A DNA stretch of 64,000 bases from Myxococcaceae bacterium. GTDB taxonomy: Bacteria > Myxococcota_A > Polyangia > Polyangiales > Ga0077539. How positions within the stretch are numbered: the stretch's first letter is position 1; the number at the start of each line of letters is the position of its first letter. Under the pieces are notes generated by a model. That model worked only from the letters and a program-made list of their open reading frames with translations, was not told the origin of the DNA and did no database searches. The stretch spans positions 5,615 to 69,614 of the forward strand of contig SCUS01000160.1 in NCBI GenBank assembly GCA_004297725.1. Reading direction: 5' to 3'. Below, in pieces: positions 7,698 to 39,193 of this stretch. The translations under genes were made by a program, and so were the position numbers.

Positions 7698-7704
7698 GCG
7701 GGGG

Positions 7705-8976
7705 CTACGGCACCACCAGGGCCGCCGCGCGATCGAGGTCGGCCTCGGCCTCGGCGAAGGTGCGCTGGAGCTCGAGCTCCTGCGAGCGGGCGTCCCACAT
7801 GGTGCGGTAGGCGTCGAAGAGGTCCTGGATGGTGAAGGACGCGCTGCCGCTCCCGCCGGCCTCGTAGGTCACCTCCGCCCGGCGCAGCAGCTCCGCGGTC
7901 GCGGTCATGCCCTGCGCCCGGAAGCGGGCGATCGCCTCGCGGGCGGCGGCGCGCGCCGTCCACGCCCCGGTGACCTCCCTCGCGATGCGCACCTCCAGCG
8001 CCTCGGAGAGCAGGCGCTGCCCCTCGGCGTCGCTGCGGGCGCGGCCCACGAGCCCCTGGTTGCGGTCGAAGACCGGCAGCGGGAAGGAGAGCCCCGCGGT
8101 CACCGAGAGGCTGTCCGCGTCGTGGGTGCCGTAGGCCCCGACCCACACGCTCGGGGTCCAGCGGTTCTCCCTCGACCAGCGCGTCGCCGAGGCCGTCGCG
8201 ACCAGCACCCCGCGCCGCGCCAGCTCCAGGTCGGGCCGCCGCCGCAGCGCCAGCGCCAGGAGCCCGTGGAGGTCCTCCGGCCCACGGAAGGCCGCGAGCC
8301 CCTCCCGGGTGATGGGCACCGCGCTCATGGTCGGGTCGGCCAGCAGCGCGGCCAGCCTCGCCTCGGCCCGGTCGCGCTCGACCAGCGCGTCGTTGAGCGC
8401 CGCCCCCAGCGTCGAGGCCCCCACCTGCACCCGGAGCGCGTCGTACTGGGAGTTCGCCCCGGCCGCCACGCGCCGCTGGATGATCTCCTGCAGCCGGGTC
8501 ACCTCGCCGAGGTTGCGCTCGGCCATGGTCACGCGCGCGTTGGCGAAGGCCCGCTCCACCATCAGCGCCTCGAGCTGCGAGGCGATGTTCCAGAGCGCGG
8601 TCGCCACGCTCACCTCGGTCATGGAGAGGGCGGCCACGGCGGCCTCGCGGCGCGCCCGCACCTGCCCGAACACCGGCAGGGCCTGCGTCACCTGGAGTCC
8701 GTAGTTGGTGCGCCCGTCGGGGGGCGTTCCCGCCGGGGTGCCCAGGAAGTTCACCTGGAGCGAGGGGTTGGGCCAGAGCGCCGCGGTGATCACGTCGAAG
8801 CGCGCCCCGCGCACCTGGGTGCGCAGCGAGGCCACCTCCCGGCTGTGGCCCAGCCAGCGTTGGAAGATCTCCTCCGCGGTGATCGTCGGCCCCTCGACCC
8901 GCTGCGCGCGCGCAGGCGACGCCACCACCATCGAGGCGAGCGCGATCGAGAGCAGAGACACCGAGCGACGGTTCAT
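7705..8976 (-). CDS. TolC/CzcC-family outer membrane efflux protein
   Basis: Start at MNRRSVSLLSIALASMVVASPARA (signal peptide; ATG complement 8974-8976) inside ORF 7705..9174. Has the two-repeat OEP pattern (WPNPSLQV, LPVFDRNQG). Convergent with czcA across a 7-bp gap. Confidence 0.8.
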   Translation of the reverse strand: MNRRSVSLLSIALASMVVASPARAQRVEGPTITAEEIFQRWLGHSREVASLRTQVRGARFDVITAALWPNPSLQVNFLGTPAGTPPDGRTNYGLQVTQALPVFGQVRARREAAVAALSMTEVSVATALWNIASQLEALMVERAFANARVTMAERNLGEVTRLQEIIQRRVAAGANSQYDALRVQVGASTLGAALNDALVERDRAEARLAALLADPTMSAVPITREGLAAFRGPEDLHGLLALALRRRPDLELARRGVLVATASATRWSRENRWTPSVWVGAYGTHDADSLSVTAGLSFPLPVFDRNQGLVGRARSDAEGQRLLSEALEVRIAREVTGAWTARAAAREAIARFRAQGMTATAELLRRAEVTYEAGGSGSASFTIQDLFDAYRTMWDARSQELELQRTFAEAEADLDRAAALVVP

Positions 8977-16834: not shown

Positions 16835-19072
16835 TCACTCCGCCCGCACCGTCGCGCGCAGCCCCTCGGCGGCCGCGTCGGGCGCCACGATGACGTCGTA
16901 CGCGATGGGCTCCAGCACCCACGCCGAGCTCGCGGTGTCCCAGTACGCGAGCTCGTCGGCGCGCACGGTCAGCGTCACCCGGGCGCTCGCCCCGGGCGCG
17001 AGCTCCACCTGCGCGAAGGAGCGCAGGTCGCGCGGGGAGCGCTCCACCCTCGACCCTCGCGCCGTCACATAGAGCTGCGCGGTCTCGATGGCCCTCACGG
17101 CTCCACGGTTGGTCACCGTCACCGAGGCCGTGAAGCTCTGGCCCGCGCGCACCGTCGTCGCCGAGAGCGAGAGCTCGCTGTAGCCGAAGGTCGTGTAGCT
17201 GAGCCCGCTGCCGAAGGCGTGCGCCGCAGGGACGCCCTCCCTCGCGAGGTGCCGGTAGCCGTGGAAATACCCGTAGGTCACCGCGTCGGAGCGGTTGTCG
17301 AAGACCGGCAGGTCGGCCTCCCGCTCGGGGATCGAGAAGGGCAGCCTCCCCGAAGGCGCCGCGTCGCCGAAGAGCACCTCGGCCAGCGCGCTGCCCCCCT
17401 GGACGCCCGGGTAGAACGCCATCACCACCGCCTCGACCTCGTCGCGCCACCCGCTCGTGAGGATCGCCGCGCCGCCCTCCAGCACCACCACCACCCGCTC
17501 GTGGAGCGCCGCCGCCGCGCGGATCAGCCCCACCTCCCCCGCCGGCAGCGCGAGCCCGTCGCGGTCGCCGGCGCCCACCTCCGCCTCGCCCTCGTCGCCC
17601 GCCTGGAGGCCCGTCACGACCACCACGGCGTCGGCCTCCCTCACCGCGCGCTGCCCCGCCTCGTCGAGCGCGTCGCCCGGGAGGTGCGTCACCGTGACCC
17701 CCGCCCCGACGCGCGCCCTCAGGCCCTCGAGGGCGGTCACCACCTGCGCCGAGCGCACGTTGCTGCTGCCGTGGTCGCCGAGGTTCTCGACGTCGGCGTT
17801 GCGCCCCAGCACCACGAGGCGTCGCAGCGAGCCCGCGTCGAGGGGCAGCGCGGGAGCACCGCGCGAGGCCTCGTTGCGAAGGAGCACCATGCCGCGGCGG
17901 GCGACCTCGCGGGCGAGCGAGAGGTGCTCCGGGGTGAGCCTGCGCGTGGGGTCGTCGGCGACCCGTGCGCGGGCGTCGAGGCCGTAGCAGAGCTGGGCGC
18001 GCAGGATGCGACGGAGCGAGACGTCGATCTCGCGCTCGCGGATCTCTCCCTGCTCGATGCGGGAGGTCAGCCGCTCGAAGTGCAGCCCGATGGGCATCTC
18101 GATGTCGAGGCCCGCGCGCACCGACTCGACGTCGCCGTGGGTGCCGAGGATCCAGTCGGACTCGACGAAGCCCGCGAAGCCCCACTCGCCGCGGAGCACG
18201 TCGCGCAGCAGGTGGGCGCTCTGGTCGCTCCAGTCGCCGTTGACCTTGTTGTAGGCGCTCATCACCGAGGCCACGCGGGCGTCGACCACGGCGCGGCGGA
18301 AGTGCGGGAGGTAGACCTCTCTCAGCGTGCGCTCGTCCATGCGCACGTCGACGCGGTGGCGGCTGTCCTCGATGCTGTTGGCGGCGAAGTGCTTGGCGCT
18401 GGCGAGCACCCCTCGCGACTGCACGCCCTCGATGAAGGCGACGGCCATGGCGCCGAGGTGGTGGGTGTCCTCGGAGTAGGTCTCCTGGGCGCGGCCCCAG
18501 CGGGGGTGGCGGAGGATGTTCATGGTGGGCGCGAGCAGCACGTCGACGCCGAGGGAGCGCACCTCCTCGGCGATGGCCTCGCCCACCCGGCGCTCGAGCG
18601 ACGGGTCCCAGGTGGCGCCTCGCATCATGGCCACGGGGAAGGCCGTGGCCTCGACCTGGGTGAAGGCGCTGAGGCCGCGCGGTCCATCGAGCATGTGGAG
18701 CCCTGGGATGCGGTGGGCCTCGTTGCCCGGAACCTCCCACGTATGCTCGACGAGCCCGAGGGTGTGGCCGTGCATGAGCGCGACCTTCTCCGCGGGGGTG
18801 AGCGCCGAGAGCAGGGCGGTGATGCGGGCCTCGATGGCGTCGGCGTCGGCCGAGCCGCAGTAGGCGCGGGTCGCCGCGGTGGGCGTGAAGGCCTCGGCGA
18901 CGTAGGAGCGGGTGCTGTCCATGGGGTTCACCTGGGGCCCGTCGTCACAGGCGGCGAGGGCCGCAGAGAGCGCGAGGGCGGCGACGCGAAGGCGGATGGA
19001 GCGCGAGGGCACGGCGACCGGAGCGTACACGCCCGACGTGCCATGACCGGAGGTGAGGGGCGCTCTACCCAA
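16835..19072 (-). CDS. Glycoside hydrolase family 3 (beta-glucosidase/BglX-like) lipoprotein
   Basis: GH3 blocks: RIPGLHMLDGPRG, KHFAANSIEDSRHRVDV..DERTLREVYLPHF, GFVESDW. A C-terminal FnIII-like domain is present. True start is uncertain: the signal peptide RLRVAALALSAALAAC suggests an internal GTG start. Confidence 0.88.
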   Translation of the reverse strand: MGRAPLTSGHGTSGVYAPVAVPSRSIRLRVAALALSAALAACDDGPQVNPMDSTRSYVAEAFTPTAATRAYCGSADADAIEARITALLSALTPAEKVALMHGHTLGLVEHTWEVPGNEAHRIPGLHMLDGPRGLSAFTQVEATAFPVAMMRGATWDPSLERRVGEAIAEEVRSLGVDVLLAPTMNILRHPRWGRAQETYSEDTHHLGAMAVAFIEGVQSRGVLASAKHFAANSIEDSRHRVDVRMDERTLREVYLPHFRRAVVDARVASVMSAYNKVNGDWSDQSAHLLRDVLRGEWGFAGFVESDWILGTHGDVESVRAGLDIEMPIGLHFERLTSRIEQGEIREREIDVSLRRILRAQLCYGLDARARVADDPTRRLTPEHLSLAREVARRGMVLLRNEASRGAPALPLDAGSLRRLVVLGRNADVENLGDHGSSNVRSAQVVTALEGLRARVGAGVTVTHLPGDALDEAGQRAVREADAVVVVTGLQAGDEGEAEVGAGDRDGLALPAGEVGLIRAAAALHERVVVVLEGGAAILTSGWRDEVEAVVMAFYPGVQGGSALAEVLFGDAAPSGRLPFSIPEREADLPVFDNRSDAVTYGYFHGYRHLAREGVPAAHAFGSGLSYTTFGYSELSLSATTVRAGQSFTASVTVTNRGAVRAIETAQLYVTARGSRVERSPRDLRSFAQVELAPGASARVTLTVRADELAYWDTASSAWVLEPIAYDVIVAPDAAAEGLRATVRAE

Positions 19073-19101
19073 AGGCCGATCCGCGCAGTAACGGATTGCC
19101 C

Positions 19102-21744
19102 ATGATCCGCCGCGCCGCCCTCCCCCTGCTCATCGCCGCTGCCGCTGCCTGCTCGTCGGACCCGGCGCCCGGCGCTCCTCCCTCCGACGCGGAGACCCCC
19201 GCCGACGTCGTCGTCGCCATCGACCTGGGAAGCCCGGTCGATGTGCCCACGGTCGATGTGCCCACGGTCGATGTGCCCACGGTCGATGTGCCCACGGTCG
19301 ATGTGCCCACGGTCGATGTGCCCGCGGTCGATGTGCCCGCGGACCGTGGCGCTCCGGTCGATGTCGGGGTCGATGCCGGGGCGCGCGATGCGGGCTTCGA
19401 CGTGGTGGATGTCCTGGTGGTGGTCGATGTCGCGACGGACGTGGGCCGTGACGCGGGCGCTCCCGACACCGGTCCGGTCGACGCCGGGACCCCCGACGCG
19501 GGCTGCGTCTCTCCCCGTCGCCTCTGCGGCGAGGTGTGCACCGACACCGCGAGCGACAGCGCCCACTGCGGCGGCTGCGGGGTGCGCTGCGCCGGGGTGT
19601 GCAGCCGCGGAGCCTGCACCCAGGTGGCCCAGGTGGCGGCGGGAACGGACTTCACCTGCGCCCGGCTGGTCGACGGCGCGGCGCGCTGCTGGGGCAACAA
19701 CGAGAACGGGCAGCTCGGCGACGGAACCGGCGGGACGCGCACCGGGCGCTGGCGGCCGACGCCGGTGATCGGCCTCGCCAACGCCGTGCAGATCGTGGCG
19801 GGCAACACCCACGCATGCGCCCGCCTGGCCGACGGGACGGCGCAGTGCTGGGGGCGCAACAGCAGCGGGCAGCTCGGCGGCGGGACGGCCGGGGGCCTCG
19901 GGCTGACGCCTCGCGCGGTCGTCGGCCTCGTCGGCGTTGCAGAACTCTCCCTGGGGGAGAACTTCACCTGCGCCCGGCTCAACGACGGGACGGTGCGCTG
20001 CTGGGGCAACAACCTCAGCGGGCAGATGGGCCTCGGGACGCAGACCGGCTCGGTGCTCACTCCGACGATGGTCCCGGGCTTGAGCGGGGTGGTGTCGATC
20101 TCGTCGGGGGTGGCTCACACCTGCGCGGTGCTCTCCGACGGGACGGCGCGCTGCTGGGGGATGAACTTCCAGGGCCAGAGCGGCGCGGGCGCCGGGGTGG
20201 ATCGGGCGCTGTCTCCCGTGATGGTCCAGGGGCTGAGCGGCGCCGTGGGGATCTCCCTCGGCAGCTTCCACTCCTGCGCATGGCGCTCCGACGGGACCGC
20301 TCGCTGCTGGGGGGACAACAGCGGCTACGACCTTGGCGACGGCACCAGCGCCCGCCGCGACGCGGCCGTGGCCGTGCTGGGCCTCGACCGGGTGGCGAAC
20401 CTCACCTCGGGCGCCTCGTTCACGTGCGCGCGGCGAACCGACGGCGCCGTGCTCTGCTGGGGCACCAACGCCCTCGGGCAGATGGGAGACGGAACCCTCG
20501 GCGGCGCCCAGATGACCCCGACGGTGGTTCCAGGGCTCGGGGCGGTGACGGAGGTCACGGCGCGAGGCAACCACGCCTGCGCCCGACGGATGGACGCGAG
20601 CGTCCGCTGCTGGGGAAGCGACGCGGCGGGAGAGCTTGGCGACGACGCGGGCCTCTCGGGCCACCGCACCCCGGAGACGGCGCTGGGCGTGCGGGCCGGC
20701 GCGGTGCAGGTCGCGGCGGGCGGAGAGCACACCTGCGCCCGCTTCGCAGACGGATCGGCGCAGTGCTGGGGCAGCGGCAACACCGGCGAGCTCGGCGACG
20801 GCGTCACGGCGAGGTCGCGGCACGTGCCCGTCGCGGTGAGCGGGCTCACGGGCGCCGCGGCGCTCGCGGCGGGGAGCTTCGGCACCTGCGCGAGGATGAC
20901 CGACGGGACGGTGCGCTGCTGGGGATACAACAGCGACGGACAGATCGGAGACGGCACCGAAGGGGGCACCCGCGCGACGCCGACGGTGGCGCTCGGGCTG
21001 AGCGGGGTGACCGACCTCGGGCTTGGGCAGACCTTCGCGTGCGCCCTCTCGGGAGGGAGCGTGCGGTGCTGGGGGAGCAACAACAACGGGAGGCTGGGGA
21101 TCAACTCCGCGGGGATGTACGGGATCCCCCGGGCGAGCAGCCCGGTGGTGGGGCTGAGCGGCGCGGCGGGGGTGGGCCTTGGGTTGTTTCACGCGTGCGC
21201 GTGGACCAGCGCGGGCGCGGCGCGGTGCTGGGGAGCCAACGACGACGGACAGCTCGGCGACGGCACCACCACGGCGCGCTGGGTGTCCACGGCGGTTCCG
21301 GGGACGGGCACCGTGACCGCCCTGGTCGGCGGCTACAGCCACACCTGCGCCCTGCGCTCCGACGGGACGGTGGCCTGCTGGGGCCGCAACTCCGCCGGGC
21401 AGGTGGGGGACGGCACCACCACGAGCCCACGCCCCGCGGCGATCGCGGTGGCCGGGCTGACGGGCGTGGCGCAGCTTGCGGCCGGGGAGTTTCACACCTG
21501 CGCCCGGAGGACGGACGGCACGGTGCGCTGCTGGGGCAACAACGACTACGGGCAGTGCGGCGACGACTCGCAGGGGGGCTCGCGGCCCTCGCCGGTGACG
21601 GTGCGCGAGCTCACGGGCGTGGCGGAGATCGCCGCGGGCGCCAACCACACCTGCGCTCGGATGATGGACGGGACGCTGCGCTGCTGGGGCAGCGACCGGA
21701 CGGGTCAGCTGGCGCTCGGAGCGCTCCGAACGCCGCGCTGGTGA
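19102..21744 (+). CDS. Secreted lipoprotein with a VDVPT linker, one Stig1-like Cys module and 14 RCC1 repeats
   Basis: ATG 19102 (MIRRAALPLLIAAAAAC). The track start at 19096 is TTG. Fourteen copies of ...H.CA...DG...CWG.N..GQLG.G. fit two 7-bladed RCC1 propellers. Confidence 0.85.
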   Translation: MIRRAALPLLIAAAAACSSDPAPGAPPSDAETPADVVVAIDLGSPVDVPTVDVPTVDVPTVDVPTVDVPTVDVPAVDVPADRGAPVDVGVDAGARDAGFDVVDVLVVVDVATDVGRDAGAPDTGPVDAGTPDAGCVSPRRLCGEVCTDTASDSAHCGGCGVRCAGVCSRGACTQVAQVAAGTDFTCARLVDGAARCWGNNENGQLGDGTGGTRTGRWRPTPVIGLANAVQIVAGNTHACARLADGTAQCWGRNSSGQLGGGTAGGLGLTPRAVVGLVGVAELSLGENFTCARLNDGTVRCWGNNLSGQMGLGTQTGSVLTPTMVPGLSGVVSISSGVAHTCAVLSDGTARCWGMNFQGQSGAGAGVDRALSPVMVQGLSGAVGISLGSFHSCAWRSDGTARCWGDNSGYDLGDGTSARRDAAVAVLGLDRVANLTSGASFTCARRTDGAVLCWGTNALGQMGDGTLGGAQMTPTVVPGLGAVTEVTARGNHACARRMDASVRCWGSDAAGELGDDAGLSGHRTPETALGVRAGAVQVAAGGEHTCARFADGSAQCWGSGNTGELGDGVTARSRHVPVAVSGLTGAAALAAGSFGTCARMTDGTVRCWGYNSDGQIGDGTEGGTRATPTVALGLSGVTDLGLGQTFACALSGGSVRCWGSNNNGRLGINSAGMYGIPRASSPVVGLSGAAGVGLGLFHACAWTSAGAARCWGANDDGQLGDGTTTARWVSTAVPGTGTVTALVGGYSHTCALRSDGTVACWGRNSAGQVGDGTTTSPRPAAIAVAGLTGVAQLAAGEFHTCARRTDGTVRCWGNNDYGQCGDDSQGGSRPSPVTVRELTGVAEIAAGANHTCARMMDGTLRCWGSDRTGQLALGALRTPRW
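19237..19341. repeat. 15-bp tandem repeat (7 units) encoding VDVPT
   Basis: GTCGATGTGCCCRCG x7, in frame in the RCC1 lipoprotein gene. Confidence 0.95.
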
Positions 21745-21757
21745 GCGGGGGGAGCGA

Positions 21758-23005
21758 TCAGAAGCAGATGCTGCCCGAGCAGCGCAGCCCGAGGTTGCAG
21801 GTGTTGCCCGCGCAGCAGGGCTGGAGGCGGCTGCCGCAGCGCACGCTGGTGCCGCAGCGGTTGGTGGACGAGCAGGAGAGGCCGACGTTGCAGGTGCTTC
21901 CGCCGCAGCAGACCTCGCCCGACGCCCCGCACGACGAGCAGGTGCCGCTGGCGCAGGCGAGGCCGACGTTGCAGGTGCTTCCGGCGCAGCAGGGCTGACC
22001 GCTGGTGCCGCAGGCGACGCACGACCCGCCGCTGCAGGTGAGCGTCGCGCCGTTGCAGGTGCTCCCGCCGCAGCAGGTCTGACCCGCGTCTCCGCAGGTG
22101 GACACCTGGCAGGTGTTGCTGCGGCAGGCGAGGCCCGAGGAGCAGGTCGACCCGGCGCAGCAGGTCTGGCCGGGGCCGCCGCAGGCCTGGCAGGCGTTGG
22201 TGAGCAGGGAGCACTGGAAGCCGGCGCCGCAGAGGCGCCCGGGGCAGCAGGTCTGGCCGGGGCCGCCGCAGGCCGTGCAGGTGGAGCCGTTGCAGGTGGA
22301 GCCCGCCGCGCAGGTGCTTCCGCAGCAGGGCTGGCCGGGAGCGCCGCAGGCCTGGCAGAAGCCGTCACGGCCGCAGAGCAGCGAAGCGCCGCAGGCGGGG
22401 GTCGTGCGCTGGCAGCAGCGCTGGCCCGCGCCGCCGCAGGCCTGGCAGGTGTTCACGCCCCCGAAGAGGCCCGAGCACTCGGCGCCGGCCTCGCAGGTGC
22501 GAAGGCCGCAGCAGGGCTGGCCGGGGGCGCCGCAGGTGGTCCCGGTGTCGCGGCGGCCGGTGTCGACCGGGACGTCCATCGCCGCGCCCGTGTCGACGCG
22601 GGGAAGGTCCATCGGCGAGACCACGTCGAGGCTGGGAGCGTCCACCGGGGTCACCGGGACATCGATGGGCGACGGGGCATCCATGGGCGCGCCGGTGTCG
22701 GGCGTCGCGGGGACGTCGGGGGTAACCCCGAGGTCGACGGGAGCGCCGACATCGACCGGGACATCGCTCCCCACGGGGACGTCCGCCGGGCTGACCGGGA
22801 CATCGACCGCAGGCACGTCCGTCGGGCTGACCGGAACATCCGTCGCCGGGGCATCCTCCTCCCCGGAGCCGGTGTCCTCGACGGACCCGACGTCGTCCTC
22901 GAAGAAGCCCGCGTCGGGGTCGACCACGGGAGCATCACCGTCGCTACAGCCCACCGACAGCACGGCCGCGAGAGCGACCCACTTCACCCAACGATTGCTG
23001 ACCAT
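21758..23005 (-). CDS. Lipoprotein with a D/P/V-rich linker and about 9 CG..GQ.CC Cys-rich repeats
   Basis: ATG complement 23003-23005 (MVSNRWVKWVALAAVLSVGC) in frame with ORF 21758..23956. Repeats fit ACG.PGQ.CC.GS.C..G..C....C. Confidence 0.75.
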   Translation of the reverse strand: MVSNRWVKWVALAAVLSVGCSDGDAPVVDPDAGFFEDDVGSVEDTGSGEEDAPATDVPVSPTDVPAVDVPVSPADVPVGSDVPVDVGAPVDLGVTPDVPATPDTGAPMDAPSPIDVPVTPVDAPSLDVVSPMDLPRVDTGAAMDVPVDTGRRDTGTTCGAPGQPCCGLRTCEAGAECSGLFGGVNTCQACGGAGQRCCQRTTPACGASLLCGRDGFCQACGAPGQPCCGSTCAAGSTCNGSTCTACGGPGQTCCPGRLCGAGFQCSLLTNACQACGGPGQTCCAGSTCSSGLACRSNTCQVSTCGDAGQTCCGGSTCNGATLTCSGGSCVACGTSGQPCCAGSTCNVGLACASGTCSSCGASGEVCCGGSTCNVGLSCSSTNRCGTSVRCGSRLQPCCAGNTCNLGLRCSGSICF

Positions 23006-23025: not shown

Positions 23026-23535
23026 TCACCGACGGGGTCGGGCGAGCCCGGCGAGGCGCTGCTCGATGACGGCGCGGTCGGGCGATCCCCCGACCTGGCG
23101 CCACACCTCGTTGCCCTGGCCGTCGACCAGCACATAGGTCGGCGTCGCCCTCAGCCCGTAGCGGCGCACCACCATCTGCGCGGCGGGCGACTCGATGTCC
23201 ACCCTCACCACCGCCATCCGTCCATGAAGCGCTCGTTCGAGACCGTCGACCGACGGTCGTGCCACCAGGCAGGGGCCTCACCAGTTGCTGTAGACGTCGA
23301 TGAGCGCGGGGGTGCCATTGCCGATGGCCGCGGCAAAGACCGCGGGCGCGTCGTGGGTGCCCCGACCGGGGCGCAGCACCAGCACCGCGAGCGCGACCGC
23401 GGCGGCCTGCGCGACGAGGGTGTAGCGGCGCCAGCCCGCGAGGCGGTGACCGTCGGGGCGACCGTCGACCCACCACGCCGCGAGGAAGGCCACGACCGCC
23501 AGGGAGACCAGGGCGTAGGTGAGGGCTGGGTGCAT
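23026..23535 (-). CDS. Membrane-anchored thioredoxin-fold protein with an in-frame TGA at the active site (candidate selenoprotein, W-U-G-P-C)
   Basis: ORFs 23278..23535 and 23026..23265 share one frame, separated only by TGA (complement 23278-23280). Read-through gives ...ALIDVYSNW-U-GPCLVARPSVDGLERALHGRMAVVRVDIE...GLRATPTYVLVDGQGNEV, a continuous thioredoxin domain after two TM helices. Confidence 0.65.
23236..23262 (-). promoter_or_regulatory. Candidate bacterial SECIS hairpin
   Basis: On the mRNA strand, 19 nt after the UGA: GACCGUC-GGUC-GACGGUC (7-bp stem, GGUC apical loop; plus-strand 23241-23258). E. coli fdhF SECIS also has a GGUC-type apical loop. Confidence 0.5.
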
Positions 23536-23581
23536 GGCGGAGGGAGTAGCGCAGGCCTCGGATACACGCCATGTAGCAGCG

Positions 23582-24187: not shown

Positions 24188-25831
24188 TCACTTGAGCGGC
24201 AGGCCGAAGGCGAGGTGGAAGGGGATGCCCGCGAGGTCGGCCCGGGCGCTCACGGAGAGCACCACGCTGCGCTGCTCGCCCTGGGTCACCACCTGGGCCT
24301 CCAGCCGCGCCGCCTCCTGCGCCGTCGGGAAGAGGAACACCGCCGCCGCCTGCTCGAAGAGAAGCTTCACCTCGGGCTCCTCGGCGCCCGGAGGGAGCTG
24401 CGCCAGCACCCAGCGGGCGAAGCGCACCACGCGCCCGGTGAGCACCTGCGCCGAGAGCGGCACCACGTCGTCGCCCTTCCTCGCCGTCGGCATCGACGAC
24501 AGGATGATCGCGTCGCTGTTGCGGCCGCTGCCGAGGCCGATGATCCCGAGCTCGGCCAGCCGGCTCTGGGCCCTGATGGAGTAGAAGGTCTCCGTCGGCA
24601 CCAGGTTGCCCGCGTCGCGACCGCTGGGCAGCTCGTACGAGCCGGCGGCCTTGAGGGCCCCCTGCGGCCCGACGATGCGCGCGAAGGCGCCGCTCTTGTG
24701 GTAGCTCGCCGAGAGCATCGCCCCCAGCGCCGCCACGGGGGATCCGAACACCACGCGACGCGCCGCGCCCGTGCCCTCGGTGCGAAGCACCGGGCGGTTG
24801 CTCACCACCGCGAGCCAGCGAGAGGCCTCGTCGGCGCGGAGCTCCTTCCATGCCGAGGGGAGCGAGCCGTCGTCGTCCTCGATGCGGGCCGAGACCGCGT
24901 GCGGGTCCTTCTGGCCGAAGAGGGCGGAGGTCACGCCCGCCACCACGGGGATGTCGTTGTCCGCGCCGAGGTTGGCCAGCTCCTGCAAGCGAGCGGGGTC
25001 ATCGACCGCGTCGAACACGAAGATCGCGTCCGGCGCCTCGTCCTCGGGCACCTCCGGGAGCGCCGCCCGGATCGCGTCGAGCGTCCCGGCGGCGTCCACG
25101 TCCAGCACCTCGACGCCGATGCCCGCGTTCTCGGGGCACTGGTCTACCAGCAGCTTGAGTCCTCGCCACGCCGACTCCAGCGCCGACACCTCGGGCGAGC
25201 GCAGGATGTCCACCGCGGTGCCGAACACCTCGGCCTCGATCACGTCCCTCGCGCCCCGCCCCGCGGCGGGCTGCGTCGCCGTCGTCGAGGGCCCTCGCAT
25301 CGCCTTGAGGAAGCTGCTCACCGCGGTGCCCGCGGAAGGCGGCGCCACCGGGGTGCTGTCCGCCGAGAGCAGCGAGTCGAGCGTGGTCGACGCGGGCGCC
25401 GCCGCCGGGGCGGGCGCCGCCGCCGGGGCGGGCGGGGTCACGTTGAGCTTCGTCTTGAGCGCCGCGGCCAGCTTGCCGTCGCCCACCAGCTCGATGACCC
25501 TCGCCACCGCCGTCACCGGGTCGGGGCGCTTCGTCGCGTCGGTCTGCGCCAGCGAGGCGCCCAGCGCGGAGAGCCCCGCCAGGGCGGGGACCGAGGCGAT
25601 CACGTCGCTGGCCTGGAAGGCCTTGAGCGAGCCGAAGGCCACCGGGTAGGAGCGCTTCGCCCCGTCGCCGAGGCGGTCGGGCACCGTCGCGTCGACCTTC
25701 AGCGCGGTCGCCTCGAGGGTGGGCGCGAAGCTGTTGGGGGACACCGTGAAGCGCCGCCCGGAGGGCTTCGCGGTGAACGCGCCCGCCACGAGCCAACGCA
25801 CCCGCACGCCCGTCTTGTCGTCTGTGCTCAT
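24188..25831 (-). CDS. TssB-TssC (VipA-VipB)-like contractile sheath fusion protein
   Basis: ATG 25829-25831 with GGAG 8 nt upstream. The N-terminal ~120 aa fit the TssB pattern (VAGAFTA..RRF.V.PNSF...L......V.DRL......V.F.SLKAF.ASDV...VPAL..L). A P/A-rich linker follows. Then TssC-like blocks appear (ALESAWRGLKLLVDQ, AIFVFDAV, IPVVAGV..ALFG). Confidence 0.65.
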   Translation of the reverse strand: MSTDDKTGVRVRWLVAGAFTAKPSGRRFTVSPNSFAPTLEATALKVDATVPDRLGDGAKRSYPVAFGSLKAFQASDVIASVPALAGLSALGASLAQTDATKRPDPVTAVARVIELVGDGKLAAALKTKLNVTPPAPAAAPAPAAAPASTTLDSLLSADSTPVAPPSAGTAVSSFLKAMRGPSTTATQPAAGRGARDVIEAEVFGTAVDILRSPEVSALESAWRGLKLLVDQCPENAGIGVEVLDVDAAGTLDAIRAALPEVPEDEAPDAIFVFDAVDDPARLQELANLGADNDIPVVAGVTSALFGQKDPHAVSARIEDDDGSLPSAWKELRADEASRWLAVVSNRPVLRTEGTGAARRVVFGSPVAALGAMLSASYHKSGAFARIVGPQGALKAAGSYELPSGRDAGNLVPTETFYSIRAQSRLAELGIIGLGSGRNSDAIILSSMPTARKGDDVVPLSAQVLTGRVVRFARWVLAQLPPGAEEPEVKLLFEQAAAVFLFPTAQEAARLEAQVVTQGEQRSVVLSVSARADLAGIPFHLAFGLPLK

Positions 25832-25898
25832 CACCGTCACTCCAAACCTATGAGAGGGGGATCAGGAAGAGGTCTGCGAAGGGGGGATAGAGAGAGTC

Positions 25899-26966
25899 TC
25901 AGAGGCCCGCGCCGATGAGGTCCATGTCCGCCTCGTCGTCGGCGTCGGGGGCGTCGTTGCTCGCGTCGCCGAGGCCGCCGTCGCGTACGATGCCGGTGCG
26001 CGCGTCGACGCGGAGCACGCGGTTCCAGAGGGAGGGGTCGCTCGCCACGAAGGCGTTGTTGATCACGTAGATCGCCCGGTCGGCCGCCGCGCGGCGGAAG
26101 ATGCGCGCCGGCACCTGCGGCCTCGCGCGGTCGCGGTCGGAGACGATCACCTGCTCGCTCACCTGCACCCCCTCGGCGCGGTACTGGAGCGAGGTCTGCA
26201 GCTCGAAGGTGCGCTCCCAGCCCGTCTCCGCGACGACCACGGAGTACTCCTTCTTGTATTCGAAGCGCGCCGGCCCGAGGCAGCGACCGCTCGCGGTGCG
26301 CAGCGGCTCGGCCACGAAGCGGTCACCCTGGAGCATCATCAGCCGCGCCTGGCGGCGGCAGGTGAGCGGGTTGTTCTCGTCGGCGCAGACCTCTCCCTCG
26401 CCGATGAGCACCCGGCGCGCGCCGATGGACTCGAGCCTGAGCCTGGGGCGCCGGGGGAAGGTGCGGAGCGTGCCGATGGCGCGCACCCCGACGCGGTCGC
26501 CGGTGAACTCTGCGAGGGCCACCGGGCCGACGGCCTCGCCGTTGTCGAAGCGGTCGACGATGACCCACACCAGCCGGAGGCTGGGGGAGAGGCGCTGGAC
26601 GACCACGTCGTCTTCGGTGAGCGGGCGCTGCGGCACCGGGGCGCTCGGCTCGGCGGACTCGCGGCAGCGGATGGTGGGCTCGCGCCACGCGACCGGCTGG
26701 TCGGTGCAGTCGCGCACGTTGCCCTGCGCCATGCCGGGGGTGTAGCCGCGGATGAGCAGCCGGGCCCAGGCGTCGGCGCGCAGCGTGGGCACGGCGCCGG
26801 CGACCGAGGGGGGCGCCGCCACGGCGCACACCATCGGCACGGGCAGCGGAGCGGCGGGCGGCGGGCGGTTGCTCGAACACGCGGACGCGACGACCGCGCC
26901 GGCGAGGCCCAGCGCGGCGCAGAGCCCGAACCAACGAACAACCCCGTGGGTGGAGAGCACTCTCAT
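25899..26966 (-). CDS. Hypothetical lipoprotein
   Basis: MRVLSTHGVVRWFGLCAALGLAGAVVASAC signal/lipobox. GC3-rich 355-aa ORF between the sheath-like and FHA genes. No recognisable family. Confidence 0.6.
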   Translation of the reverse strand: MRVLSTHGVVRWFGLCAALGLAGAVVASACSSNRPPPAAPLPVPMVCAVAAPPSVAGAVPTLRADAWARLLIRGYTPGMAQGNVRDCTDQPVAWREPTIRCRESAEPSAPVPQRPLTEDDVVVQRLSPSLRLVWVIVDRFDNGEAVGPVALAEFTGDRVGVRAIGTLRTFPRRPRLRLESIGARRVLIGEGEVCADENNPLTCRRQARLMMLQGDRFVAEPLRTASGRCLGPARFEYKKEYSVVVAETGWERTFELQTSLQYRAEGVQVSEQVIVSDRDRARPQVPARIFRRAAADRAIYVINNAFVASDPSLWNRVLRVDARTGIVRDGGLGDASNDAPDADDEADMDLIGAGL

Positions 26967-27016
26967 GGGAACGACAACCCCTGCGCGCCAGAAGACAGAA
27001 GAGCTTCAGGGCCGGA

Positions 27017-28390
27017 TCAATGACCCCGGCCGGATGGTACACGCCTCGGATCGTTGTCAGCGAAGTTTTCTCCGAGCGCGGCGGAGTACGCCCGGGCGAA
27101 GTCGCGGCCGAAGATGGCGGAGGTGATCTCCTTGTCCTCGGTGAGCTCGTCGTGGAGGGCCAGGTAGCGCTTCCACGCCGCGGCGGCCTTGAAGGGGCCG
27201 AAGCTGAAGGCCCCGGCCTCGCCGTCGACGTGGCGCATGATCCCAGCGGGAGAGAGCCGCACCTGGAGCAGCTTGCGGACGCCCTCCATCACGGCGCCCA
27301 GGAGGGCGACCTGGTGGGTCATGATCTCGGCGTACTGACCGCGGAGCTGCTGCATCCGGGCGTCGCCGTCGCCGGTCCAGTCGAGGAGGTACTCGAGCAC
27401 GGGGCGAGGGTCCTGCGCGTCTTCGATGGGCGTCGGGTCGGCGCTGCGGCGCTGCGAGCCGACCATCTCGGTGCCGAACTCCTCCTGGCTGCGACGCAGG
27501 CTCACGTACGCGGTGCCGAAGGTCTCCAGCGCCGCGAGCGCCCTCACCAGGAAGCCCTCCATCTCCTGCGGCGACTGCGGCGCGGGCCGAGACGGGACGA
27601 GGTACTGCGCGAGCTGCTGCACCAGCTGACCGGCGGCCCCGCCGGAGCCGTCCTGATCGCCCGGGAGGGGCACGTTCTGCGACTGGGCGAGGGCCTTGAA
27701 CTGCGGCTCGGAGGCGACCTCGGGGAAGCTCTCGGCGAAGAGGGTGATCGCCGCCGGCACCTGCGCCGCGGGGACCTGCGAGAGGGCGTTGACGAGGCCC
27801 TGCTGGAGTTCTTGCCAGGCGCGGCGGTGCGCGGCGTAGAGGGGGCGCAGCGCGAGGATCTGGTTGCGCGCCGGGCCCATCATCGTGGGCCGGGCGGTCT
27901 GCGCCGCGGCGTGGCTGGCCATGATCGACGCGGTGTCGATCATCATGGTCGAGGAGACGTCGTTCTCGATGGAGGGGTGGCCCGAGGCGACCCTGGACTG
28001 GGTGCTCTTGAGGAGCCCCGCGGAGACCACGGTGGAGTCGGCGTTGGTCGAGGCCGACTGGGTGATCATCTGCTCGGGCACGTTGGCGAGCTGGAAGGTC
28101 AGCCTCAACGCCCCGATGCGGAACTCGTACTCGGGCCCCGGGATGCCCACCGGCTGGTTGGGCGCGAGGCGCTGCCCCCCGACGGTGGTGCCGTTGGTGG
28201 AGCCGAGGTCGTAGTAGGCCGCGTTGCTCTGGTCGAAGGCCACCACCGCGTGCCACTGCGACACGAAGGGGAAGGGCAGCGGCAGGTCGTTGAGGGCGTT
28301 GCGACCGATGCGCACCGGCGTCTTGGCGAACGCGAACGAGCGGGATGAGTTGTCCTGGAAATTATCGACGCGGACGAGCAGGGCCAACAT
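27017..28390 (-). CDS. FHA domain protein with a TagH-type (T6SS-associated) C-terminal domain
   Basis: ATG complement 28388-28390 (MLALLVRVDN...) in frame with ORF 27017..28831. FHA core: RIGRN..NDL.L....VSQWHA.V......YYDLGSTNGT.V. C-terminus: HQVALLGAVMEG...KAAAAWKRYLALHDEL...IFGRDFARAYSAAL, like the TagH/Fha C-domain. Confidence 0.75.
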   Translation of the reverse strand: MLALLVRVDNFQDNSSRSFAFAKTPVRIGRNALNDLPLPFPFVSQWHAVVAFDQSNAAYYDLGSTNGTTVGGQRLAPNQPVGIPGPEYEFRIGALRLTFQLANVPEQMITQSASTNADSTVVSAGLLKSTQSRVASGHPSIENDVSSTMMIDTASIMASHAAAQTARPTMMGPARNQILALRPLYAAHRRAWQELQQGLVNALSQVPAAQVPAAITLFAESFPEVASEPQFKALAQSQNVPLPGDQDGSGGAAGQLVQQLAQYLVPSRPAPQSPQEMEGFLVRALAALETFGTAYVSLRRSQEEFGTEMVGSQRRSADPTPIEDAQDPRPVLEYLLDWTGDGDARMQQLRGQYAEIMTHQVALLGAVMEGVRKLLQVRLSPAGIMRHVDGEAGAFSFGPFKAAAAWKRYLALHDELTEDKEITSAIFGRDFARAYSAALGENFADNDPRRVPSGRGH

Positions 28391-28571
28391 CAGAAAGGCG
28401 CCTTCGTGGTCTTCGTTCGGAGGGTTCGCGGCCGACGGCGGCGCGACAGTATCACAGCGACCCGGACAAAAATCGCGGAGGCGATTTGACGCTCGGCGCG
28501 CGGTGTTTCTGCTGGGGATGTCGCCGAAGCACAGGACCAAGAACGCTTCGGCTGGAAAGGCAGAAACCACC

Positions 28572-29015
28572 ATGATGACCCTCTGGCGTCCCTTCGGCAT
28601 CGACTCCTCCCTCCGTGGCCTCGACCGTGAGGTGGAGCGGATCTTCCAGGACAAGTCCTTCGCCCATCGCCCTCGCCCCGAGGCGCCCGCGGAGGTCTTC
28701 GAGAACGAGGAGAACATCACCCTCCGCGTCGACCTCCCCGGGGTGAACCAGTCCGACGTGCAGGTCGGCGTAGAGAACAACGTGCTGACCATCAAGGCCA
28801 CCCGCACCGCCCCCGCGGACGACGGCCGCACCGTCTACCACCTCGCCGAGCGAGGCTACGGCGAGGTCACCCGCACCTTCCGTCTGCCGGGCCGCGTGGC
28901 GAGCGAGAGCGCCGAGGCCAGCTACGCCGACGGCGTGCTCACCATCCGCTTCCCCAAGCGCGCGGAGGCGAAGGCCCGCACCATCGAGGTGAAGACCCGC
29001 GGCAACGCCTCGTGA
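28572..29015 (+). CDS. Hsp20/alpha-crystallin family small heat-shock protein
   Basis: MMTLWRPF...PAEVFENEENITLRVDLPGVNQSDVQVGVENNVLTIKA...ERGYGEVTRTFRLP...ASYADGVLTIRFPK. Confidence 0.92.
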   Translation: MMTLWRPFGIDSSLRGLDREVERIFQDKSFAHRPRPEAPAEVFENEENITLRVDLPGVNQSDVQVGVENNVLTIKATRTAPADDGRTVYHLAERGYGEVTRTFRLPGRVASESAEASYADGVLTIRFPKRAEAKARTIEVKTRGNAS

Positions 29016-36670: not shown

Positions 36671-37747
36671 TCAGCCCTCCTCGACGACCCAGGCGGCGCC
36701 CTCGTCGATCGCCGCGAACACCGCGTCGCCTTCCCCGAGGCCCAGCGCTCGAAACACCCTCCTGGGCATCCTCGCCAGCAGGGGGTAGCCGCAGTCGAGG
36801 GCCACCACCGTGAAGGCCCCCTCGTCCTCGACGCGCAGCACCCGCCCCGGTGCGCCGTTGCGCCCGCCGCCGGGGTCGCGGGCCAGCAGCGCCACGTCCT
36901 CGGCCCTCACGCACACCCTCACCGCACCGGTGACTCCGACCGGCGCCGAGGCCGCCAGCTCTCGCCCTCCGGCGAGCAGCACCGCGCCGCCCTCCGTCGC
37001 GCGCAGCACCGTCGCGCGCACCAGGGTGTCCACCCCGAGGATGCGCGCCGTCGCCGCGTCGCGAGGGCGCTCGAAGACCTCGCCCACGGGACCGGACTGG
37101 CGCACCCGCCCCGCGTCGAGCACCGCCAGCGAGTCTCCGATGGCCATGGCCTCCGAGGGGTCGTGCGTCACCAGCAGCGTCGGCAGGGAGAGTTCTCGCA
37201 CCCAGCGGCGGAGGTCGGCGCGCAGGGCCGAGCGCGTGGGGTGGTCGAGCGCCGAGAAGGGCTCGTCGAGCAGCAGCAGCGAGGGCCGGCGGGCGATGGC
37301 CCGGGCGAGCGCCACGCGCTGACGCTCACCCCCGGAGAGGGTCGAGGGCGCCCGGTGTCGCAGGGCGCCGAGCTCGAAGCGGGCCACGCACTCGTCGACC
37401 CGGCGGGATCGCTCCGAGGGGCTGAGCGCGTCGAGGCCGAAGGCCACGTTGGCGGCGACGTCGAGGTGGGGGAAGAGGGCGCCGTGCTGCGCGACGAAGC
37501 CCACGTCCCGGCGCTGCGGAGGCACCCAGGTGGTCGCGTCGAACCAGGGGCGGCCGCGCCAGGAGACGATCCCCGCGGAGGGGCGGTCGAGGCCCGCGAG
37601 GCAGCGCAGGAGGGTGCTCTTGCCCGCGCCCGACGGGCCGAAGAGCACCGCGATGGGGAAGGCCCCGGCGTCGAGGGAGAGCTCGGCCGAGCGGCGCGTA
37701 CCGCGGGCTGCGCGCAGCTCGACGCGGGCGATCAGGTCGTCGGCCAC
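36671..37747 (-). CDS. modC: Molybdate ABC transporter ATP-binding protein
   Basis: GTG complement 37745-37747. Walker A GPSGAGKST, LSGGERQRVALARA, LLLDEPFSALD, and a C-terminal TOBE-like domain. Overlaps the modB stop. Confidence 0.88.
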   Translation of the reverse strand: MADDLIARVELRAARGTRRSAELSLDAGAFPIAVLFGPSGAGKSTLLRCLAGLDRPSAGIVSWRGRPWFDATTWVPPQRRDVGFVAQHGALFPHLDVAANVAFGLDALSPSERSRRVDECVARFELGALRHRAPSTLSGGERQRVALARAIARRPSLLLLDEPFSALDHPTRSALRADLRRWVRELSLPTLLVTHDPSEAMAIGDSLAVLDAGRVRQSGPVGEVFERPRDAATARILGVDTLVRATVLRATEGGAVLLAGGRELAASAPVGVTGAVRVCVRAEDVALLARDPGGGRNGAPGRVLRVEDEGAFTVVALDCGYPLLARMPRRVFRALGLGEGDAVFAAIDEGAAWVVEEG

Positions 37748-38406
37748 CGGAAGGCCCCCTCGCGCTGAGCGCGGTAGGTGAGCGCGAGCAGCGCGAAGGA
37801 GAGCGCCACCAGCACCCCGGCGGTGCGGTTGGCGGCCGCGTAGTCGAGCGACTGCACCTGGTCGTAGATGGCCACGGAGACGGTGCGGGTGCGCCCCGGG
37901 AGGTTGCCTCCCAGCATCAGCACCACGCCGAACTCGCCGAGGGTGTGCACGAAGGTGAGCACCGCCGCGGCGACGACCCCAGCGCGGGAGAGGGGCAGCA
38001 CCACGCGGACGAAGGTGCGCGCCCGGTCGGCCCCGAGGCACCACGCGGCCTCGAGCAGCTCGCGGTCGACGCGGGCGAAGGAGGCGCGCATGGGCTGCAC
38101 CGCGAAGGGGAGGCTGTAGAGCACCGAGCCCACGACGAGCCCTGGGAAGGTGAAGGGGAGCGACTCTCCCGTGAGTCGGAGGAGCAGCGCGCCGACGGGG
38201 GAGCGGGGGCCGAGGGCGATGAGGAGGTAGTACCCGAGCACCGTCGGAGGGAGGAGCATCGGCATCGCCACCAGGGCGTCGACCACGTGGCGCCACCGCC
38301 AGCGCGTGGTCGCGAGCCACCACGCGAGGGGCAGCGAGAGCGCGAGCAGGATCACCGTGGTCACGGCGGCGAGGCGCAGGCTCAGCGCGAGGGCGGTCCA
38401 GTCCAT
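37732..38406 (-). CDS. modB: Molybdate ABC transporter permease
   Basis: MDWTALALSLRLA... with the EAA loop (LLEAAWCLGA.R..F..V.LP) and GEFG motif. Confidence 0.88.
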   Translation of the reverse strand: MDWTALALSLRLAAVTTVILLALSLPLAWWLATTRWRWRHVVDALVAMPMLLPPTVLGYYLLIALGPRSPVGALLLRLTGESLPFTFPGLVVGSVLYSLPFAVQPMRASFARVDRELLEAAWCLGADRARTFVRVVLPLSRAGVVAAAVLTFVHTLGEFGVVLMLGGNLPGRTRTVSVAIYDQVQSLDYAAANRTAGVLVALSFALLALTYRAQREGAFRWPTT

Positions 38407-38413
38407 CGGTGGG

Positions 38414-39193
38414 TCAGGGAGAGGGTGGGTCGAAGCCGTGGCGCGCGAAGATCCCACGAGCGGAGGCGGAGCGGAGATACTCTGCGAAGGCCTCGGCGGA
38501 GGGCCGGTGGGCCGCGCGGCGGAGGATGACCCCGCCCTGCTCGATGGGGGGATGGAGCGCGGCGGGGACGACGTAGCGCTGACCGCTGGAGGCGACGCCC
38601 GGGGCATGGGTGAGCGAGAGCGAGACGAGCGCGGCGTCGGCGGCGCCGGACTGGGCCATCTGCATGGCCTGGGCGACGTTTTCTCCGGTGACGAGCTTGG
38701 GGGCGACGGCGGCGGTGAGGCCGGAGGCCGAGAGCGCGGCGACGGCGGCGCGGCCGTAGGGAGCGTGCCGGGGGTTGGCGAGGGCCACTCGGCGGATGGA
38801 GGGGTCGAGCAGGGCGCGCAGCCCGAGCGAGGGGAGGTCGAGGTGGGGAGCGCGAGGCACCCAGAGCGCGAGGTGGCCCCGGGCGTAGCGGAAGAGCGAG
38901 CGGGGTTGGGCGAGGCCGAGGGTGACGAGCTCGCGGGCGAGGGACTCGTCGGCGGAGAGGAAGACGTCGAAGGGAGCGCCCTGGGAGATCTGCGCCACGA
39001 GGCTCCCGGAGGCGCCGAAGGAGAGCTCGACGAGGAGCTCGGGGTGGGAGGAGCGAAGGTCGGCGAGGAGCTCGGCGAGGACGTAGCGGAGGTCGGAGGC
39101 GGCGGCGACGGCGACCCGGTGTGGGGACGCCGTGCGGCGACGGCAGGCGAGCGCGGAGAGCGAGAGCAGCAGGAGCGAGCGGCGCGGGAGCAT
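38414..39193 (-). CDS. modA: Molybdate ABC transporter substrate-binding protein
   Basis: V.VAAASDL......L...........V..SFGASGSL..QI.QGAPFDVF.SAD. Sits upstream of modB and modC. Confidence 0.85.
   Translation of the reverse strand: MLPRRSLLLLSLSALACRRRTASPHRVAVAAASDLRYVLAELLADLRSSHPELLVELSFGASGSLVAQISQGAPFDVFLSADESLARELVTLGLAQPRSLFRYARGHLALWVPRAPHLDLPSLGLRALLDPSIRRVALANPRHAPYGRAAVAALSASGLTAAVAPKLVTGENVAQAMQMAQSGAADAALVSLSLTHAPGVASSGQRYVVPAALHPPIEQGGVILRRAAHRPSAEAFAEYLRSASARGIFARHGFDPPSP

Follow-up and report, generated by a model that had tools for sequence, protein, structure and literature searches.

A predicted two-helix membrane-anchored selenocysteine thioredoxin in Polyangia-type myxobacteria

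We analyzed a 64,000-nucleotide stretch of a myxobacterial genome assembly (Myxococcaceae bacterium, GCA_004297725.1, contig SCUS01000160.1, positions 5,615 to 69,614), hereafter the window, which carries on its minus strand a thioredoxin gene (trx) with a single in-frame UGA. This UGA, codon 86, is very probably recoded as selenocysteine (Sec) by SelB·Sec-tRNA(Sec) via a selenocysteine insertion sequence (SECIS) that lies inside the gene's open reading frame (ORF), and the product would be a 169-residue thioredoxin with two transmembrane (TM) helices and the active site W-U-G-P-C. The initial annotation had proposed a probable selenocysteine W-U-G-P-C membrane thioredoxin at this place. The proposal is supported by orthologues that carry either TGA or TGC at the codon in question, by purifying selection, and by an mRNA hairpin that is specific to the TGA forms.

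The gene occupies one minus-strand frame of 170 codons (23026–23535), made up of 169 sense codons, with Sec at position 86, and a final TGA stop (23026–23028). Its translation reads MHPALTY…ALIDVYSNW-TGA-GPCLVARPSVDGLER…ATPTYVLVDGQG…RPRR-TGA. The sole break in this frame is the TGA at 23278–23280, past which the frame-specific GC content at third codon positions (GC3) runs on. A mechanical ORF list gives the gene as two minus-strand pieces of the same frame, 23278..23535 and 23026..23265; these are the two ORFs, parted only by a TGA, from which the initial annotation started, and their coordinates are reproduced here. Translation also bears out that the upstream half ends in ALIDVYSNW and that GPCLVARP follows directly after the TGA, codon 86 thus sitting at the nucleophilic Cys position of the thioredoxin WCGPC motif. 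All public gene calls seen for TGA forms split the gene into an N-terminal piece of ~85 residues and a C-terminal piece of ~76 residues. The conserved MHPALTY is likely the true start. A 1-nucleotide indel 5′ of this ATG (window 23536–23580 versus L001:8534–8569) brings an upstream ATG into frame in the related locus L001, and the corresponding database protein (P0011) thus has a 12-residue N-terminal extension that the window does not have.

With Cys substituted at codon 86, residues 65–154 match the Pfam family Thioredoxin, PF00085 (E = 1.2e-10, 41.7 bits versus a gathering cutoff of 23.5), and PF13098 is also matched (28.6 versus 27). The PF00085 match crosses the TGA, in line with the earlier statement that the stop stands at the thioredoxin nucleophilic Cys and that the downstream half completes the fold. 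The closest PDB match is the thioredoxin 1v98 (E = 3.4e-13), in which WCGPC lines up with W-x-GPC of the trx product and the cis-Pro "PT" with its "TPT"; in the alignment to 1v98 and 6zom, wCGPC and r(a/s)(t/v)PT are matched. The scores remain below cutoff for the canonical NCBIfam equivalogs of TrxA and TrxC (TIGR01068, 50.3 versus 96.8 bits; NF006898, 33.5 versus 138; NF008229, 32.7 versus 125) and for the TlpA, ResA, and DsbE (CcmG) models (TIGR00385, 21.8 versus 123; TlpA, 21.9 versus 230; ResA, 12.8 versus 170). By these family models the protein is thioredoxin-like but no orthologue of the soluble proteins TrxA and TrxC. None of the curated NCBIfam selenoprotein families of thioredoxin-like proteins (e.g. 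TsoB, SaoT, HUIPC-motif, VPGUxxT) scored above cutoff, the only match being seleno_TsoB at 31.3 versus 805. The two hydrophobic stretches that the initial annotation took for a membrane anchor do precede the thioredoxin domain, with an Arg-rich loop (residues 24–38) between the two predicted helices. For the Cys orthologue closest to the trx product, AlphaFold was given an alignment of 10 sequences; in the resulting low-confidence model (mean predicted local distance difference test score, pLDDT, 57), a helix starts at residue 87, after the position of codon 86.

Relatives were gathered by a protein search, a scan of species-representative genomes, a metagenome scan, and an exhaustive profile search. 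The same TGA at codon 86 is present in 17 further distinct sequences from metagenomes and from metagenome-assembled genomes (MAGs) of Myxococcota/Polyangiales, at ~50–99% amino acid identity; the MAGs include JADJAE01, JAXLYI01, CBIHPK01, CANJUR01, and CAYUSB01, with the gene on contigs JADJAE010000034, JAXLYI010000004, CBIHPK010000106, CANJUR010000083, and CAYUSB010000062, respectively. The protein search returned ten full-length orthologues at 64–86% identity, all ten with WCGPC, and one 97-residue protein (P0011), 96% identical, which ends in …NW. The contig that encodes it, L001, was obtained in an independent run and shares synteny with the window, and on it the same TGA is followed by the same frame. 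Among the nine Myxococcota/Polyangiales MAG loci of the genome scan, codon 86 is TGA in five and TGC in four; a further seven distinct TGA forms came from the metagenome scan. The profile search yielded more diverged "half proteins" that stop exactly before the CxxC position; the DNA of three of them (L026, L027, and L028) keeps the TGA, with the motifs W-U-G-P-C, W-U-S-A-C, and T-U-G-P-C. Cys stands at position 86 in 16 close full-length orthologues, six of them read as DNA and 10 further as proteins, and the codon is TGC in the Cys loci L002, L006, L007, L009, L011, L014, and L015. Genomes with the Cys form include JAUSAZ01, CAIOSS01, JAWKRB01, and JBILLI01. TGC or TGA is thus what occupies codon 86 in the orthologues, the comparison that the initial annotation had called for. 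At the residue before Sec (codon 85, window 23281–23283), the Sec forms, among them L013, L021–L024, and L028, show W, Y, F, A, or T, but the 16 close Cys forms have Trp throughout; the constraint on the "W" of WCGPC may be relaxed or altered when Sec is present.

The TGA forms contain no frameshift and no second premature stop. Between the window and L001, its closest independent relative, 23 codons differ: six synonymously and three nonsynonymously upstream of the TGA, 13 synonymously and one nonsynonymously downstream. Pairwise dN/dS (ratio of nonsynonymous to synonymous divergence) among the TGA forms is 0.02–0.48 downstream, similar to the 0.18–0.51 upstream, with synonymous divergence reaching ~0.5, and both halves of the gene are under purifying selection. 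The downstream half, for which conservation or decay had been left to be checked, is conserved and shows no decay. The TGA and the intact frame with low dN/dS across diverged relatives exclude a sequencing error and a recent pseudogene. A read or assembly error at codon 86, the former an objection that the initial annotation had itself raised, is excluded by the recurrence of the TGA in many independent assemblies.

The SECIS-like hairpin that had been described 3′ of the UGA is confirmed in its details. It is formed by a 5′ arm GACCGUC (23252–23258), a loop GGUC (23248–23251), and a 3′ arm GACGGUC (23241–23247), and its 7-bp stem starts 19 nucleotides past the UGA, the loop lying 26 nucleotides past it. 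Every TGA form carries, equally far from the UGA, the consensus G(A/G)CCGUC-GGUC-GACGG(U/C)C, with a minimum free energy (MFE) from −11.6 to −14.3 kcal/mol (−12.2 in the window). GGUC-type loops with an exposed G-U are the SelB contact in the SECIS hairpins of Escherichia coli fdhF and Moorella. The bacterial SECIS consensus asks for a loop of 3–9 nucleotides with G in its first two positions, a stem of 4–16 bp, a UGA-to-loop distance of 16–37 nucleotides, and an MFE of −7.5 kcal/mol or below (PMC13188914, Fig. 2); the 4-nucleotide loop GGUC, the 7-bp stem, the spacing of 26 nucleotides, and the MFE range given above agree with it on all counts. The earlier description of a SECIS with an apical-loop G-U at a fixed distance holds as to the consensus fit, but "fixed" was too strict in view of the published range.

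No such hairpin is found in the Cys forms. The close Cys forms have Ala (GCG/GCC) in place of the Gly98 (GGU/GGC) of the Sec forms, which abolishes the 3′ arm. In 15 distinct TGA-form sequences, 100% of the stem cells are standard pairs, with no mismatch. The pair 24–39, both members of which are synonymous third positions, is G-C in seven sequences, A-U in four, and G·U in four, never A·C, and the pair 23–40 is G-C in 14 and A-U in one. In L028 the closing pair is changed on both sides, from G-C to A-U, through an Arg-to-Lys codon change and a Leu codon change from CUC to UUG. None of 500 column shuffles reached the observed pairing/covariation score, and sliding the register by 1–3 nucleotides lowers the pairing to 0–53%. 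Five synonymous third positions fall within the hairpin; two of them covary as a pair, and the remaining three do not change among Sec forms (CCG, TCG, GTC) but vary among Cys forms. The synonymous diversity of codons 87–102 versus the rest of the gene is 0.14 versus 0.28 in the TGA forms and 0.30 versus 0.30 in the Cys forms. Beyond the stem, GAA-CGA, two rare codons (E100, R101; window 23232–23237), are likewise retained by the Sec forms. Two other structures were set aside: a longer stem predicted from the single sequence, in which the UGA region pairs with GCUUCAU, has broken pairs in L013 and L016, and a short UGCC-N4-GGCA hairpin that the Sec forms also keep, located past the UGA and before the SECIS-like element (23260–23271), shows no covariation, with one pair broken in three sequences.

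In the mechanism that we propose, the in-ORF hairpin would act as a bacterial SECIS, bringing SelB·GTP·Sec-tRNA(Sec) to a ribosome that has paused on this UGA, and codon 86 would be decoded as Sec during translation. We infer the identity of the inserted residue as Sec, and the dependence on SelB, from the features described above. In the protein, Sec86 would be the attacking nucleophile, and Cys89 would resolve the mixed selenenylsulfide, as the second Cys does in CxxC thioredoxins. For the Sec-decoding trait in Myxococcota, the published case of the myxobacterium Anaeromyxobacter dehalogenans, with 11 selenoproteins of which two are thioredoxins (PMC1794560), offers the only support; this 2006 entry was also the only one found in the literature on Sec use in Myxococcota/Polyangia.

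The topology and the substrate are likewise what we infer. In all 20 orthologues considered, the loop between the helices contains four to five Lys/Arg residues, the segment after TM2 one to two, and the N-terminal tail none. By the positive-inside rule, these counts weakly suggest that the inter-helix loop is cytoplasmic and the thioredoxin domain periplasmic. A periplasmic thioredoxin domain could reduce or isomerize disulfides, perhaps in the Cys-rich lipoprotein whose gene lies just downstream. This lipoprotein is a 415-residue product (21758–23005) with a lipobox LSVGC, an acidic and Pro-rich linker, and some ten repeats rich in Cys (C..G..CC…C…C), for which no Pfam family was found. The adjacency of the two genes is kept in eight genomes, in Sec and Cys forms alike, and not in more distant ones. 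The lipoprotein is a candidate substrate, nothing more, and the functional link is drawn from this arrangement.

Several observations weigh against Sec insertion at codon 86 or narrow what can be said of it. Neither the window nor the ~190 kb of flanking sequence retrieved yielded a selA, selB, selD, or tRNA-Sec gene, in a search that comprised ARAGORN prediction of tRNA-Sec on the window and 10 loci and Pfam annotation of ~50 window genes for SelA, SelB, and SelD. A lone hairpin of this kind is unexceptional at 74% GC: the 27-nucleotide fold (−12.2 kcal/mol) has a z-score of −1.8 and is matched by seven of 200 shuffles, and the 71-nucleotide fold around it has a z-score of +0.1. The significance that we attach to the hairpin comes from the comparison of sequences alone, and there just two of the seven stem pairs vary, which makes the covariation support narrow. 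Rfam, queried with the entire window at the gathering threshold and with 23150–23330 at E ≤ 10, gave no SECIS match, a weak objection given how diverse bacterial SECIS elements are; the sole match at those settings, DnaX, was taken as chance. When the Sec forms are made into a covariance model, they themselves score 72–94 bits and the Cys orthologues 29–47, with nothing else in 250 kb, a gap that exists partly by construction. Lastly, the topology and substrate are read only from charge counts and gene adjacency, and the AlphaFold model is poor (pLDDT 57).

The main surviving alternative is a selenium-free read-through of the UGA, driven by the hairpin or its context, in which Cys or Trp carried by a near-cognate tRNA, or a standard amino acid carried by a suppressor tRNA, would be inserted to give an ordinary thioredoxin at low yield. 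Such read-through would explain equally well the conserved TGA, the selected downstream half, and the conserved mRNA structure, and it agrees with the failure to find the Sec machinery within the window and the fetched flanks. Against it stand a hairpin whose loop sequence, size, and spacing fit the SECIS consensus of the SelB type, and a UGA placed exactly at the catalytic position where the orthologues have Cys, as is characteristic of Sec/Cys pairs; moreover, Myxococcota are known both to have Sec-thioredoxins and to decode Sec. We are aware of no comparable system of SECIS-independent read-through at codons of an active site, and we count this too against the alternative, which we regard as unlikely.

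Two separate products, an 85-residue two-TM peptide and a thioredoxin C-terminal fragment of ~79 residues started from an internal GTG (23265), are what gene callers annotate (P0011, P0017, P0018, P0021, P0055, and P0079), and purifying selection downstream of the TGA is also expected of an independent ORF. However, this GTG is not conserved, being CTG in L016, L019, and L026 and ATG in L027 and L028, and the codons from the TGA to any candidate start (G/T/S-P/A-C-L-…) are conserved, with an invariant Cys89. A fragment that lacks β1 and the active-site nucleophile would not make a functional thioredoxin fold, and the full-length Cys orthologues are single polypeptides. A split gene is in our judgment highly improbable.

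A pseudogene, in which a TGC-to-TGA nonsense mutation killed a Cys-thioredoxin gene, would need a single C-to-A change, and standard annotation would indeed call the gene disrupted. Yet the TGA persists over lineages up to a synonymous divergence (pS) of ~0.5, with no indels or extra stops and with a downstream dN/dS well below 1, and a dead gene would not maintain a conserved hairpin specific to the TGA forms; on these comparative grounds the pseudogene is effectively refuted and keeps almost no weight. An artefact of sequencing or assembly, or a non-standard code with UGA as a sense codon (Trp or Gly), is refuted, having nothing in its favor except the bare in-frame TGA, a TGA that more than 15 independent assemblies, made in different studies, have in common, and the genetic code is standard since TGA is the ordinary stop of 39 of the 53 predicted window genes, the trx gene included.

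Table 1. Features of the trx locus and of the adjoining genes in the window
Feature	Position	Strand	Basis or remark
Complete predicted selenoprotein gene, two-TM-anchored product with thioredoxin fold	23026..23535	-	End-to-end alignment with full-length Cys orthologues of 166–168 residues; GC3
In-frame UGA, codon 86, inferred Sec codon	23278..23280	-	Aligns with the first Cys of WCGPC
Resolving Cys of U-x-x-C, codon 89 (TGC)	23269..23271	-	Invariant across all Sec and Cys forms
Thioredoxin domain, residues 65–154, spanning the UGA	23074..23343	-	Pfam PF00085
Predicted TM helix 1, residues ~3–25	23461..23529	-	Hydropathy; AlphaFold helix 3–24, pLDDT ~70–80
Predicted TM helix 2, residues ~37–57	23365..23427	-	Hydropathy, Lys/Arg counts; AlphaFold helix 29–54
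SECIS-like hairpin within the ORF, codons 93–99 (R-P-S-V-D-G-L)	23241..23258	-	Conservation, covariation, bacterial SECIS consensus
Cys-rich lipoprotein-type gene, possible partner or co-transcribed	21758..23005	-	Starts 20 nucleotides after the trx stop
VipB/TssC-like sheath protein	24188-25840	-	
Conserved hypothetical protein	25899-26960	-	
FHA + T6SS_FHA_C protein	27017-28831	-	

Genes resembling those of type VI secretion adjoin the trx gene (24188–28831, minus strand; Table 1) and are syntenic in L001, L008, L010, and L012. On its other side, convergent with the lipoprotein gene, an 882-residue secreted protein with RCC1 repeats (RLD β-propeller) and N-terminal VDVPT tandem repeats is encoded at 19096–21744 on the plus strand. 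Further away, the window holds a molybdate-type ABC transporter operon (36671–39193, minus strand), whose products are an SBP_bac_11 protein of the periplasm, a permease, and a TOBE-domain ATPase; molybdo- or seleno-enzymes like formate dehydrogenase did not turn up in the window. An RND efflux system lies at 3529–8976, with an HlyD-type adaptor (3529–4605) and an AcrB-type pump (4605–7697) on the plus strand and an outer-membrane factor (7705–8976) on the minus strand.

A scan of ~220 kb in six frames, restricted to in-frame TGA codons in a coding-like frame next to Cys, recovered only the codon-86 site in seven genomes and one other candidate; a generic GC3-based scan for in-frame TGA was set aside, swamped by noise from antisense frames. 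The other candidate is a lipoprotein-like ORF (L014:18508–19143, plus strand) in a Polyangiales MAG with a Cys-form two-TM thioredoxin. Its in-frame TGA (18808–18810) stands in the context YYFSNAI-U-GFCG and is followed by a bulged 7-bp hairpin with a GGU loop, which starts 17 nucleotides after the UGA. The candidate is uncorroborated, with no Pfam match, no homologues, and no copy in the other loci.

Among selenoprotein families, Sec-thioredoxin (PF00085, UxxC) has been verified by experiment, and several thioredoxin-fold UxxC families are predicted (PMC9312934, PMC13188914). Verification in Treponema denticola is reported in the account that PMC9312934 gives of Kim et al. 2015, and Sec-thioredoxins are predicted in Geobacter, Carboxydothermus, and A. 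dehalogenans (PMC1794560). Like these, the trx product would have Sec in place of the N-terminal nucleophilic Cys of W-C-G-P-C and keeps the resolving Cys, its putative SECIS is in the ORF just 3′ of the UGA, and Sec and Cys orthologues form pairs. In contrast to these Sec-thioredoxins, as they are described, it has a predicted two-TM anchor and is probably extracytoplasmic. The predicted PF13098 "thiol:disulfide interchange protein," DsbA-like, DsbG-like, and TlpA-family UGC selenoproteins (PMC9312934, PMC13188914) are likewise of the thioredoxin-fold UxxC type and thought to act on extracytoplasmic disulfides, but they have a signal peptide or a single anchor and other active-site contexts, instead of the two hydrophobic helices found here. 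A weak local match, over TM helices and the thioredoxin domain that follows them, as at the DsbD gamma end, links residues 7–144 to positions 402–550 of the model for TsoB (NF045694), a rhodanese/DsbD-fusion selenoprotein (31 bits, cutoff 805). The TM-plus-thioredoxin arrangement of DsbD/TsoB puts the thioredoxin domain in the periplasm, the same direction as that suggested by the charge counts. The trx product differs from DsbD/TsoB in having no DsbD beta-domain core and no rhodanese domain, and the Sec residues of TsoB are in UxxxxU.

The same architecture at ~160–180 residues is widespread among Cys proteins, in a broader family of two-TM proteins with a thioredoxin domain, whose Cys forms P0015, P0019, P0025, P0031, P0032, P0058, P0088, and P0093 share R-P-G after TM2 and the motifs (V)DxLE…(T)P(T)F/Y…GG. 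Its distant members all have CxxC (CGAC, CPPC, CIAC, CLGC, CVGC, CAGC, CVAC), and Sec is found only in the Polyangiales-type clade. The libraries searched hold no function on record for this family. In an outgroup-rooted neighbor-joining tree, made with no bootstrap, the distant two-TM thioredoxins all carry CxxC, the earliest Polyangiales-type branches are Sec forms, and two Cys clades are nested within the Sec forms. This branching suggests one Cys-to-Sec gain followed by two Sec-to-Cys reversions, each accompanied by loss of the hairpin; such dynamics of Sec/Cys gain and loss are generally reported for bacterial selenoproteins (PMC1794560). We tentatively propose, without giving it an even chance, the following wider picture: an as yet uncatalogued subfamily of two-TM, periplasm-facing Sec-thioredoxins, confined to Polyangia-type myxobacteria, which would have arisen by one gain and undergone two reversions with decay of the SECIS, and which in one clade would be co-transcribed with a disulfide-rich lipoprotein that it services.

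The trx product is a known kind of protein with no new mechanism, and the understanding of Sec decoding is unchanged; to a selenoprotein specialist the finding will be unsurprising, and it is of use in annotation and in the natural comparison of Sec and Cys forms. MAG annotations and protein databases misrepresent the TGA-form gene as two pieces, and the signature …N-x-U-x-P-C…ARPSVDGLE together with the GGUC hairpin could become a curated model. The predicted selenoprotein would add a membrane-anchored architecture to the Sec-thioredoxins and extend Sec use to Polyangia-type myxobacteria of wastewater, soil, and freshwater metagenomes. It would also offer a compact case of Sec gain and loss inside one family, in which the in-ORF SECIS constrains the protein itself: Gly98 and the codon choices at P94, S95, V96, D97, and L99 are held fixed among the Sec forms, a constraint that is relaxed in close Cys forms. 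If Sec is indeed inserted, natural Sec and Cys isoforms that are ~85% identical and share the same gene context would provide a clean test of the benefit of selenium to an extracytoplasmic thiol-disulfide oxidoreductase in aerobic high-GC bacteria.

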